Assembly: GCF_013315695.1 (NCBI RefSeq)
Contig: NZ_CP054353.1
Strand: one strand, 5' to 3'
DNA length: 64,000 nt
Source of the DNA: Escherichia coli
Lineage (GTDB): Bacteria; Pseudomonadota; Gammaproteobacteria; Enterobacterales; Enterobacteriaceae
Made by a program: the position numbers. Below are positions 45,601 to 48,600 of the stretch, in pieces. Every line of letters begins with the position of its first letter. Position 1 is the first letter of the stretch.

Positions 45601-48600
45601 GTGGTAGCGTAAATTACGCTCATATATCATTGTAAAGTATGGGTTTTATATGAACTATAATGTTTTCGTGATAATACGCTGCATGTATTAGGCGGAAAAA
45701 ACTGATCTGGGGGATGTAGAAACTCAAGGAAGTAGCTATAATGCGCCCCGCCTCCATGTAGCAATCGAGGCGCGGAAGATCGTCGTCTCCGGTGAGGCGG
45801 CTGGACTTCAAATCCAGTTGGGGCCGCCAGCGGTCCCGGGCAGGTTCGACTCCTGTGATCTTCCGCCAAAATTCCTCTTCATACGTTCTCCAACCCCTCG
45901 TAATACTGTCAATCCAGATATTTTCTACTGCTCAATATTAAATCGGCTTCAGGAATACCTGATCAAAGGTTTTATGATGGACGATGAGCGGCTGAAGAAT
46001 CCGCCAGTCGGTTCTTCTGTCCTCGAACGCATCCGCGATATTCGCGCCAGTATGCGCCGTGTTTATTTGCAGGTGATTTGCCCCCTACTGACTCTCAGCC
46101 AACTGTATCGCCATTAAGGTGAAGATGTTGTTTTACACGCTTCTGCACACCCTTTTTATACGACTATTCTATTCCTTTAACCGCTGGCGAAAAAAACTGA
46201 CCTATAAACTTCACCAATAATCAGACTGCCATCAAGATTAATTTTTTCATTTAATATATCAAATAAACTTGTTTTATTTTTACTATCAAAAATAGCTCAT
46301 TGCCTTACTATAATTAATATATAAATTCGGTGATTAACTCTTAACATGCCTTTGCTAATAATCTCAATTGCTGGCCCTATAATATTGCGCTAGCATTGCT
46401 TTCTGGTTGTATCAGCGATACTCAAAAATTCTTAATACAATACTCATTCGACTGGTACTTATTTGTAACTCAGTTATATTTTGTCGCCCGGTGATTCAGA
46501 AGAATGCAAAAAACGGCTACTACTCCATCAAAAATACTTGATCTCACTGCCGCGGCATTTTTACTTGTCGCCTTTCTGACTGGTATTGCGGGCGCTCTCC
46601 AGACTCCCACCCTAAGTATATTCCTCGCAGATGAACTGAAAGCCCGTCCTATAATGGTAGGTTTTTTCTTCACCGGTAGCGCTATTATGGGAATTCTGGT
46701 CAGTCAATTTCTGGCAAGGCACTCCGATAAACAAGGCGACCGTAAATTACTGATCCTGCTATGTTGCTTATTTGGAGTGCTGGCCTGCACGCTTTTTGCG
46801 TGGAATCGCAACTACTTCATTCTCCTCTCAACGGGCGTACTTCTGAGTAGTTTTGCTTCCACTGCAAACCCGCAAATGTTCGCCCTCGCCCGTGAACACG
46901 CCGACAGAACAGGCCGTGAGACGGTCATGTTCAGTACATTTTTACGTGCTCAGATCTCGCTTGCCTGGGTTATCGGGCCACCGCTCGCTTATGAACTGGC
47001 AATGGGATTTAGTTTTAAAGTGATGTATCTCACCGCTGCCATCGCATTTGTTGTTTGCGGACTGATAGTCTGGTTGTTTTTGCCATCAATACAAAGAAAT
47101 ATTCCTGTCGTTACCCAACCCATAGAAATTTTACCCTCCACCCACAGGAAGCGGGATACGCGGCTACTTTTTGTGGTCTGTTCAATGATGTGGGCGGCGA
47201 ATAATCTCTACATGATAAATATGCCGCTATTTATTATTGATGAACTGCATCTAACCGATAAACTGGCTGGAGAAATGATTGGTATCGCTGCCGGTCTGGA
47301 AATTCCGATGATGTTAATCGCAGGCTATTACATGAAACGTATTGGCAAGCGGCTATTAATGCTCATTGCTATCGTGAGTGGTATGTGTTTTTACGCCAGC
47401 GTACTCATGGCGACGACTCCGGCAATTGAGCTGGAATTGCAAATTCTAAATGCCATTTTCCTTGGTATTCTCTGTGGTATCGGCATGCTTTATTTTCAGG
47501 ATCTGATGCCTGAAAAAATAGGCTCTGCGACAACGTTATATGCAAATACCTCACGCGTCGGCTGGATTATCGCCGGCTCTGTTGACGGAATTATGGTTGA
47601 AATCTGGAGCTACCACGCGTTGTTCTGGCTGGCGATAGGGATGTTGGGTATTGCGATGATTTGCCTGCTGTTTATTAAAGATATTTAGCTCACCAGTCTG
47701 GGCTAAGAAAAATCGGCGTGGCGCAAACAGAGCCATCCTCGCCATTTTTGCTATCATGCCTGCATACATAAACGACAAAACAGTATGCAGAGGGAAAAAT
47801 GGGTTCCACCAGAAAGGGGATGCTGAACGTTCTGATTGCCGCCGTGTTGTGGGGAAGTTCAGGGGTCTGCGCGCAATACATCATGGAGCAAAGCCAGATG
47901 TCGTCGCAGTTTTTGACTATGACGCGTTTGATATTCGCCGGTTTGATTCTGCTGACGCTGTCATTTGTTCATGGCGATAAAATCTTTTCTATTATTAACA
48001 ATCACAAAGATGCCATTAGTCTGCTGATTTTTTCCGTGGTTGGCGCGCTAACCGTACAGCTCACTTTTTTGCTAACCATCGAAAAATCGAACGCAGCCAC
48101 GGCAACGGTGCTGCAATTCCTCTCACCGACGATTATCGTCGCCTGGTTCTCACTGGTACGTAAATCGCGCCCGGGCATTCTGGTTTTTTGCGCTATTTTG
48201 ACATCGCTGGTCGGGACTTTTTTACTGGTGACACACGGTAATCCGACGTCATTATCGATCTCTCCTGCCGCGTTATTCTGGGGCATTGCCTCGGCATTTG
48301 CTGCGGCATTCTATACCACCTATCCCTCAACGCTAATTGCCCGCTATGGCACGTTGCCTGTCGTCGGCTGGAGTATGCTGATCGGCGGTCTGATTCTGTT
48401 GCCTTTTTATGCCAGACAAGGGACAAACTTTGTCGTTAACGGCAGTTTGATTCTGGCGTTTTTTTATTTGGTGGTCATTGGTACGTCCCTGACATTTAGT
48501 CTGTACCTGAAAGGAGCACAATTAATTGGCGGTCCAAAAGCCAGCATTTTGAGCTGTGCAGAACCATTAAGTAGCGCGCTGCTCTCTTTGCTGTTGCTGG

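Follow-up and report, generated by a model that had tools for sequence, protein, structure and literature searches.

A decayed rhuM fragment, the K-12 pseudogene yicT, in the empty selC site of an Escherichia coli genome

Is a selC site that carries no island an untouched stretch of backbone, and does the short spacer between selC and setC encode anything? We addressed these questions in a 64,000-nucleotide stretch of an Escherichia coli genome (contig NZ_CP054353.1), hereafter the window. The original prediction described the selC integration hotspot as unoccupied and left it undecided whether an open reading frame (ORF) of 47 codons in the spacer, which is present as described, is a small gene or a relic. 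We found that the spacer is very probably an ordinary K-12-type empty site and the ORF a non-functional frame within yicT, a decayed fragment of rhuM (Table 1). The observation was thus correct yet ordinary, as the relic is already annotated in K-12.

Table 1. Features of the selC-setC region, in window positions.
Feature	Position	Strand	Basis or remark
selC, tRNA-Sec (UCA) gene	45774-45868	+	ARAGORN; Rfam RF01852, 83.8 bits; intact
Attachment core for selC islands of other strains	45845-45880	+	last ~24 nt of selC and ~10 nt downstream
Leader remnant, originally separating selC from where an old rhuM copy began	45869-45949	+	collinear with E69
rhuM relic, orthologue of K-12 pseudogene yicT (b4653)	45946-46104	+	Pfam, tblastn, nhmmer, PGAP, MG1655 annotation
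47-codon ORF, ATG ATG GAC ... TAA (47 aa, MMDDERLKNPPVGSSVLERIRDIR...)	45974-46117	+	open frame inside the relic
AT-rich region upstream of setC, 28-34% GC	46105-46503	+	composition profile
setC, sugar efflux transporter gene	46504-47688	+	next long ORF past selC

An occupied selC site would show an integrase beside the tRNA gene and a direct repeat of the tRNA 3' end at the far island boundary, and the window has neither. No second copy of the selC 3' end (last 26, 22 or 18 nt, allowing up to 3-4 mismatches) was found in the 64 kb, nor was the CTTC-less repeat variant known from other strains, and no integrase-like ORF lies between selC and setC (45869-46503). The claim that setC follows selC with no integrase or direct repeat between them therefore held, for the repeat across the whole window. 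In the PGAP annotation of a strain with 100% identity, a rhuM pseudogene is the sole feature between the two genes; strain 25DN, by contrast, carries an integrase 300 nt past selC. In occupied genomes the match at the far-end junction begins at window positions 45839-45848 or nearby, and the match on the tRNA side ends at 45868-45880. The attachment core occurs only once in the window, which is the empty-site state and leaves no second repeat to delimit an islet, that is, cargo enclosed by two attachment-site repeats without an integrase. The selC gene is 100% identical to that of MG1655 and is contiguous with the flank of island-free strains. Alignment with K-12, suggested as a check, returned a collinear match over 45500-48100 at 97.8% identity, and 2493 of 5426 complete E. 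coli genomes, K-12 derivatives included, matched a 141-nt junction probe over its full length. By the K-12 standard of a contiguous junction without integrase or repeat, the selC site is unoccupied.

Unoccupied does not mean virgin, however. The spacer holds a 159-nt internal piece of rhuM corresponding to about codons 120-184 of 345. It matches the Pfam RhuM family (PF13310) with 47.7 bits against a gathering cut-off of 33.7 (E=1.6e-12), the match covering only profile positions 50-99 of 252, whereas intact relatives cover 1-250. A tblastn search with intact RhuM aligned residues 121-171 to the relic at 78% identity, and an nhmmer search with a rhuM DNA profile built from 78 sequences placed it at positions 360-552 of 1026 (E=5.3e-36). 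Read directly from the alignment, the relic shares ~90% nucleotide identity with intact E. coli rhuM (117 identities over 130 aligned bases) and carries internal deletions of 24, 6 and 4 nt, one of which shifts the frame. A functional RhuM would have the whole ~250-residue domain in an intact ORF of ~330-345 aa, which the relic lacks, and PGAP calls it a rhuM pseudogene with N- and C-terminus missing and, in K-12 and E24377A, an internal stop. The yicT pseudogene of MG1655 (3836425-3836556) maps to about window 45977-46107; given 95.6% nucleotide identity to MG1655 and the same position between selC and setC, the relic is its orthologue. Flanking genes and internal RhuM fragment are likewise the same in both. 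They differ in that the window reads ATG ATG where K-12 reads GTG ATG, lacks the upstream TAA of K-12 and has a poly-C run of 5 instead of 6, so that the ORF ends in another frame. No further rhuM pieces were found in the spacer by tblastn (word size 2, E<=10) or by nhmmer at maximum sensitivity, only the relic being significant. Literature searches on yicT returned unrelated texts only.

Between selC and the relic lies the remnant of a leader that is 81% identical to positions 1878-1980 of E. coli E69 L011. In E69 a selC 3' repeat precedes this stretch, which continues into a second, truncated rhuM (its first 14 codons). The breakpoint of the 5' deletion is directly visible at 45949/45950 (CGGCTT/CAGGAA). 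A longer rhuM homology, reaching back to selC, was considered and rejected, as the DNA homology starts sharply at 45946 in about 45 loci; the longer version had come from a whole-window tblastn (residues 80-171) and from PGAP, which draws the pseudogene longer in strain 300444. As rhuM coding sequence, the 77 nt that separate selC from the relic were likewise rejected; the E69 leader explains them instead. The leader is 92.2% identical to MG1655, against 98.5% for setC, and divergence from MG1655 is about 2.5 to 5 times higher in the spacer segments than in setC. In the AT-rich segment beyond the relic we detected no rhuM homology (nhmmer, tblastn), RNA family or feature annotated in MG1655.

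Because the spacer contains both the 159-nt fragment of rhuM, which other strains and genera carry within elements integrated at selC, and the leader of an old rhuM copy, the "empty" state of selC appears to be one of decayed earlier occupancy, a scar left by a selC-linked rhuM element of older date. The description of the site as unoccupied thus stands by comparison with K-12 but fails if taken to mean untouched backbone. Of the features named as grounds for abandoning it, a duplicated selC 3' end and an integrase fragment, neither turned up; what the spacer does hold is a piece of an island cargo gene. Tests of selC occupancy, by PCR or in silico, should reckon with a reference empty flank that is probably an island scar in its own right.

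The state seen in the window is common. Relic and spacer are kept in 3609 of the 5426 complete E. coli genomes, and the relic sits just past the far-end repeat in every occupied-site strain examined, strains 361 and e1-39 among them. An alternative allele with an intact rhuM, of the type found in strain PU-1, occurs in 845 of the 5426 (about 16%). In PU-1, window positions 45879-47769 are replaced by an intact rhuM directly past selC, a degenerate copy of the selC 3' end and a hypothetical gene, and setC is absent. Pseudescherichia vulneris likewise has an intact rhuM directly past selC with such a repeat behind it, and E69 carries two tandem rhuM copies with a repeat between them. As in the window, rhuM in PU-1, ATCC 11775, E69 and P. 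vulneris follows selC directly and is read in the same direction, and the relic is ~90% identical to it over the aligned bases, but the PU-1-type islet spans 1.2 kb, encodes an intact RhuM of 345 aa and is bounded by a selC 3' repeat, in an allele without setC, where the window has a stump and no repeat. It follows that setC belongs to the variable selC-yicL interval and is not universal: some 16% of genomes carry the alternative allele, and PU-1, the one examined, is without setC. Beyond E. coli, a tRNA-Sec gene lies upstream on the same strand in 24 of 80 loci encoding close RhuM relatives, within 1 kb in 16 of them.

Could the spacer nonetheless be kept for something it encodes? The ORF might be a real small gene, a domesticated RhuM fragment giving a peptide of 43-47 aa with its own function. 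In keeping with this, none of the 7 strains compared has an interruption in the frame read from the second ATG (45977), a weak Shine-Dalgarno-like AAGG precedes the first ATG by 5 nt, and the sequence has persisted in two-thirds of the genomes searched. Persistence, however, is accounted for by the position of the relic between the essential attachment core and setC, and the start, stop and frame that a small gene should conserve among strains are not conserved. The first ATG is lineage-specific, being GTG in the other 6 of the 7 aligned strains; the ORF starts at what was internal Met codon(s) in the ancestral gene, and frameshifted rhuM sequence supplies its last 13 residues. With a poly-C run of 5 or 6 among the strains, this C-terminus switches between two unrelated sequences with different stop positions. 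A conserved RhuM residue is altered (R to L in the DDERL motif), and divergence in the ORF region runs at about 3 times the rate of setC. Of the 12 sites that vary among the 7 strains within the RhuM-homologous stretch, 9 are non-synonymous, one of them a TAA, and the 12 fall 6/2/4 over the codon positions; within the frame from the second ATG the balance is 4 non-synonymous to 3 synonymous changes, too few to separate neutrality from weak constraint. An ATG-initiated ORF of >=47 aa also arose in 882 of 2000 shuffled spacers (44%). As its length is not beyond chance, the significance of the ORF comes only from its RhuM homology. Both curated annotations treat it as a pseudogene, and we regard a functional small gene as very improbable. 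The relic half of the original alternative was borne out by the RhuM homology, the yicT annotation and the non-conserved start and C-terminus. Judged by sequence, the ORF appears to be an accidental open frame within the relic with no sign of peptide-level selection in the seven strains, and it does not merit further treatment as a small-gene candidate. A role for the spacer as DNA or RNA rather than through the ORF, as a trailer or terminator at the selC 3' end, a small RNA or the setC promoter, is somewhat less remote but still improbable. The AT-rich segment directly upstream of setC must contain the setC promoter, and two weak sigma-70-like sites lie at 46316-46362. Against such a role, Rfam at E<=1 on 45400-46700 matched nothing beyond tRNA-Sec, promoter-like sites (2 found, 3.0 expected from shuffles) and terminator-like sites (1 against 0.7) show no excess, yicT is the only MG1655 annotation in the spacer, and conservation within the interval is lowest in leader and relic.

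A different objection concerns origin. The fragment may never have been part of an integrated element, rhuM being instead an old, vertically inherited neighbour of selC in Enterobacterales that decayed in place. Loci with rhuM 170-650 nt past selC, on the same strand and without an intervening integrase, do occur in several genera (Enterobacter, Raoultella, Pantoea, Proteus, Morganella, Providencia, Photorhabdus and Hafnia), and in most of those loci the selC 3' repeat is not seen within 6 kb downstream. Traces of mobility elsewhere nevertheless make this unlikely. The intact rhuM of PU-1, E69 and P. vulneris has selC or a selC repeat on one side and a second repeat on the other, with no integrase, and is followed by an arm of ~110 nt, placed in PU-1 just ahead of the repeat, that is homologous to the end of the integrase-bearing island of strain 361. 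A fragment of the island gene DUF4942 lies directly upstream of rhuM in E. albertii, Erwinia and Yersinia ruckeri, and E. albertii has a truncated integrase as well, in the order selC, truncated integrase, DUF4942, rhuM. The tandem copies of E69 with their intervening repeat also speak against simple vertical descent, as do relatives of RhuM (66-89% identity) encoded away from selC in Vibrio, Shewanella, Zhongshania and others, which point to mobility. Among 25 selC-linked loci, no strong recurrent rhuM neighbour was found, bar the DUF4942 fragment and integrase remnants in a few.

Decay of an island-borne rhuM would then proceed as follows. In an ancestor of most E. coli, an intact rhuM would have stood about 120 nt past selC, reading in the same direction; selC-adjacent rhuM persists in many Enterobacterales and in about 16% of E. 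coli. It would have been brought there by tyrosine-integrase islands that insert at selC and hold rhuM as the final cargo gene at their far end. One deletion would have taken the end of the leader and rhuM codons 1 to ~119, and a second event everything past about codon 184, joining the stump to the AT-rich region upstream of setC, after which small deletions and point changes would have accumulated without visible constraint. Since selC and its attachment core stayed intact, later islands would integrate to the left of the relic, leaving it beside their far-end repeat; none has integrated here. The relic itself probably does nothing. The homology, the breakpoints, the poor conservation of the ORF and the population counts were observed directly; we infer the lack of function and the order of events, and both the deletion order and the island-borne origin of the ancestral gene are drawn from the sequences of other strains rather than from this lineage, in which no selC 3' repeat survives to the right of the relic as proof of an old island boundary.

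A wider reading is possible, and we offer it as a whole and only tentatively, as falling short of probable. In it, rhuM, a candidate anti-phage gene, would have been brought specifically and repeatedly to selC across Enterobacterales by tyrosine-integrase islands, in which it would form the final cargo gene ahead of the far-end arm. The gene might then survive as an islet of 1.2-1.4 kb with attachment-site repeats and no integrase, perhaps able to move by an integrase acting in trans. The K-12-type "empty" selC would be the oldest decayed layer of a tandem accretion, and E. coli lineages would bear the marks of no fewer than two or three separate rhuM deliveries: yicT, the stump of 14 codons in E69, that of codons 166-245 in PU-1 and the intact copy. 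The candidate defence role comes from the intact RhuM of PU-1, which matches the PADLOC PDC-S05 models end to end (E=2.8e-173) and so makes the ancestor of the relic a candidate anti-phage gene. With about 60 of 345 codons left, the relic cannot encode that protein, and the defence role of PDC-S05 is itself only a candidate one. The tight linkage of selC and rhuM across the order is a small lead on the capture of defence genes at tRNA hotspots.

Comparison with described selC islands places the window in a known layout. In S. Typhimurium, rhuM is found at selC within SPI-3 (PMC3680342). Going by the published description, that gene belongs to the same family (PF13310) and lies at the same tRNA locus as the relic, but it is intact and part of a large island, whereas the window keeps about 19% of the gene. 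For the enteroaggregative strain 042, selC-A and selC-B were defined by Sheikh et al. 2006, in the account given by Fox et al. 2020 (PMC7058095), and selC-A and the eip island selC-B are two separate insertions (PMC7058095). In 042, selC-A lies between selC and a 21-bp selC 3' repeat, and that repeat is absent from the window. Past setC we found yicL, nlpA (- strand) and yicS, followed by type III secretion chaperone and translocon genes from 50349; the window thus has the selC-B island (eicA, eipB, an eipD-like gene, eilA and air/eaeX) beyond the backbone setC-yicL-nlpA. The type III secretion island starts right after yicS, as had been noted, but the suggestion that it inserted there instead of at selC, as if by choice of site, does not agree with the published separate insertions (PMC7058095). 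Presence of selC-B without selC-A is the layout reported for most ST69 isolates (PMC7058095), and an empty selC with an eip/eilA/air island after yicS is, like the annotation of yicT, already published.

Searches on the proteins of the alternative alleles gave little more: neither the 122-aa hypothetical protein of PU-1 nor the 405-aa ORF of E69 matched Pfam, and a PDB sequence search with intact RhuM found no relatives. In the alignment, the old remnant in PU-1 and yicT differ in their internal deletions.

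The only tRNA gene that ARAGORN finds in the window is selC, encoding tRNA-Sec and supported by Rfam at 83.8 bits; the closest match across 45774-46503 is E. coli MS 21-1, at 100% identity. RefSeq annotation of this strain gives the order setC, yicL, nlpA, yicS, a SycD/LcrH chaperone, a YopB/SseC-family translocon subunit, a SipD-family needle-tip protein, eilA and air/eaeX. Measured against K-12, the selC site is unoccupied, as the original prediction held. The spacer between selC and setC (45869-46503) carries no integrase-like ORF, and, allowing as many as 3-4 mismatches, the last 26, 22 and 18 nt of selC have no further copy in the 64 kb; the CTTC-deleted repeat variant known in other strains is also absent from the 64-kb window. 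Type III secretion genes (chaperone and translocon) do follow yicS, as had been stated. In E. coli 042, one insertion (selC-A) has selC on one side and a 21-bp repeat of the tRNA gene's 3' end on the other, and past it the backbone genes setC, yicL and nlpA precede a second (selC-B; eip, eicA, eilA, eaeX); in ST69 isolates selC-B is present and selC-A largely missing (Fox et al., PMC7058095). The window has the layout of the ST69 isolates, with selC-B and without selC-A.

Features of the selC-yicS region of the window, with identity to MG1655, and rhuM loci of other genomes (own coordinates)
Feature	Coordinates	Identity to MG1655	Remark
selC	45774-45868, +	100%	tRNA-Sec, anticodon UCA
77 nt after selC		92.2%	
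rhuM relic	45946-46104	95.6%	
47-codon ORF	45974-46117		
AT-rich segment		96.2%	
setC	46504-47688	98.5%	394-aa transporter, next long ORF past selC
yicL	after setC		307-aa ORF, name from MS 21-1 RefSeq annotation
nlpA	after yicL, - strand		272-aa ORF, name from MS 21-1 RefSeq annotation
yicS	after nlpA		120-aa ORF, name from MS 21-1 RefSeq annotation
Type III secretion chaperone, then translocon protein	from 50349		translocon protein 593 aa
Islet, E. coli PU-1 (L003)	8096-9327		intact rhuM
Islet, Pseudescherichia vulneris (L033)	5752-7157		intact rhuM
Islet, E. coli E69 (L011)	211-1899		intact rhuM
selC-rhuM, L028	5673-7035		example locus
selC-rhuM, L036	5702-7035		example locus
selC-rhuM, L066	5736-7035		example locus

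The original prediction had hesitated between a small conserved gene and a relic for the 47-codon ORF in the spacer, whose sequence, closed by TAA, is exactly as first given. The second reading is the right one: the ORF is a relic, orthologous to the annotated K-12 pseudogene yicT, itself a fragment of rhuM. Its length is unremarkable: when the spacer is shuffled by mononucleotide, 44% of the shuffled sequences have an ATG-initiated ORF at least as long. The frame that contains it matches Pfam PF13310 (Virulence_RhuM) above the gathering threshold (E = 1.6e-12), limited to profile positions 50-99 of 252, and aligns with residues 121-171 of the intact 345-aa RhuM of E. coli PU-1 with 78% identity and a gap of 8 residues. 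A DNA profile made from 78 intact rhuM genes matches the relic at profile positions 360-552 of 1026 (E = 5.3e-36), with gaps of 24, 6 and 4 nt, the last of which shifts the frame, and finds no further rhuM match elsewhere in the spacer; identity to intact E. coli rhuM is about 90% over aligned bases (117 of 130). Given this alignment, the ORF start corresponds to ancestral internal RhuM methionine codon(s), within a motif that reads GFVMDDERL in the intact protein and GFMMDDERL in the window; about 33 RhuM-homologous codons are followed by 13 codons of frameshifted rhuM sequence. In MG1655 (NC_000913.3), yicT (b4653) occupies 3836425-3836556 between selC and setC, equivalent to about 45977-46107, and PGAP places a rhuM pseudogene there in MS 21-1, a K-12 derivative, E24377A and others, adding "internal stop" in K-12, strain 361 and E24377A. 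As yicT is already annotated in K-12, the finding is already known.

No sign of a conserved peptide was seen when the ORF region was aligned among seven strains, the window included. The first ATG is GTG in all six others, a TAA lies three codons upstream in K-12, strain 361 and E24377A, and a poly-C tract, either 5 or 6 long, yields two unrelated C-termini. Within the RhuM-homologous stretch, 12 sites vary (6, 2 and 4 at codon positions 1, 2 and 3), and nine of these changes are non-synonymous, one of which turns the R of the conserved DDERL motif into L. Read from the second ATG, the frame is open in 7/7 strains, with four non-synonymous and three synonymous changes, too few for a selection test; we leave a small residual probability that the ORF is translated.

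Among the strains, E. coli E69 tells most about the origin of the relic. Here a selC 3' repeat, an intact rhuM, an arm and a second repeat are followed by 80 nt with 81% identity to 45869-45949 and, 40 nt beyond, by the opening 14 codons of another rhuM, which an unrelated ORF cuts short. Because this stretch runs into the start of the second rhuM, the 77 nt after selC in the window are the leader of a former rhuM copy next to selC. At the 5' breakpoint of the relic (CGGCTT/CAGGAA, 45949/45950), some 400 nt would have been deleted, taking away the leader end and rhuM codons 1 to ~119; on the 3' side, past about codon 184, the relic abuts the AT-rich setC upstream region.

Among 5426 complete E. 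coli genomes, 2493 (46%) match a 141-nt probe of the selC/spacer junction over its full length, and 3609 (66.5%) have a single place that covers 80% or more of the 730-nt selC-to-setC segment. The gap of ~1100 genomes corresponds to matches beginning within the last 21-30 nt of selC, at the far-end repeat of an island. Two occupied-site strains were inspected. In strain 361, antirestriction, YeeU/CbtA toxin-antitoxin and DUF4942 genes lead to the repeat, the relic and setC, and the primase-helicase island of e1-39 ends in the same way. Since the repeat immediately precedes the relic in both, the relic is on the chromosomal side with respect to the attachment core (~45845-45880).

Intact rhuM is also found in integrase-less islets of 1.2-1.7 kb in PU-1, P. 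vulneris and E69, with selC (or a selC 3' repeat) at one end and a further selC 3'-end repeat at the other. The PU-1 type occurs in 845/5426 genomes (~16%), type strain ATCC 11775 among them. PU-1 itself has selC, 52 nt, intact rhuM, ~110 nt, a degenerate selC 3'-end repeat (GCGACTCCTGTGAT-CGCCAAAATGCCTCTTC), an older stump of rhuM (residues 166-245, E = 2e-11), then a hypothetical gene and yicL, in that order; setC is absent. P. vulneris has the same rhuM-arm-repeat structure. The ~110-nt arm before the repeat, common to islets and integrase-bearing selC islands, is homologous to the terminal segment of the strain 361 island after DUF4942, which puts rhuM just inside the far end of that island type. 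In E. albertii the order is selC, truncated integrase, DUF4942 fragment and rhuM; in Erwinia and Yersinia ruckeri a DUF4942 fragment lies directly upstream of rhuM. The whole of 45879-47769 (yicT and setC) is a replacement polymorphism against PU-1 8106-10390, which holds intact rhuM, the repeat, the old stump and a hypothetical ORF of 122 aa that Pfam does not match. Not all E. coli have setC, and its upstream spacer is present in only 66.5% of complete genomes.

rhuM has been located in Salmonella SPI-3 at tRNA-selC (PMC3680342). Taking a single genome per species, we searched for close relatives of intact RhuM (66-99% identity) and retained 80 loci (L013-L083). tRNA-Sec lies upstream on the same strand in 24 of them and within 1 kb in 16 of these, covering at least 10 Enterobacterales genera, including Erwinia, Huaxiibacter, Pseudescherichia, Enterobacter, Raoultella, Pantoea, Proteus, Morganella, Photorhabdus, Providencia and Hafnia; the sole other tRNA was tRNA-Leu(CAA), seen twice. 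Intact RhuM matches PDC-S05, a phage-defence candidate in PADLOC, from end to end (E = 2.8e-173) and has no sequence relative in the PDB. A candidate defence gene is linked strikingly specifically to one tRNA gene, and this order-wide linkage with repeat-bracketed islets is the one side observation worth keeping. Together with the integrase-less islets, carried by some E. coli and by one P. vulneris genome, it suggests, with moderate probability, repeated site-specific delivery and tandem accretion. Two short contigs from metagenome-assembled genomes labelled Sphingobacterium (L039) and Bacillota (L043) carry an enterobacterial-type selC and a rhuM whose identity to the E. coli protein is 78%; mis-binning or contamination probably explains both contigs.

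On the yicS side, identity to the K-12-like strain 361 is 97-99.5% over setC, yicL and nlpA, falls to 77-93% over 49400-50047 (nlpA upstream region and yicS), and homology stops at the yicS stop codon, where the eip/eilA/air island starts. The divergent yicS allele may have arrived with the island, in which case recombination may actually have had its boundary around 49.4-49.6 kb. From 50349 to 64000 the window encodes the SicA-like chaperone eicA, eipB (593 aa), a hypothetical protein, a SipD-family needle-tip protein, the HilA-family regulator eilA and the start of air/eaeX, a very large inverse autotransporter. The air repeat region differs from that of MS 21-1: 57786-61781 matches at 98%, with many internal repeats at 83-87%. 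For all its 100% identity at selC, the window does not come from MS 21-1: between yicC and dinD that strain has an integrase-bearing, phage-like element of ~19 kb (record 98364-117467), which the window lacks at ~18990-20300.
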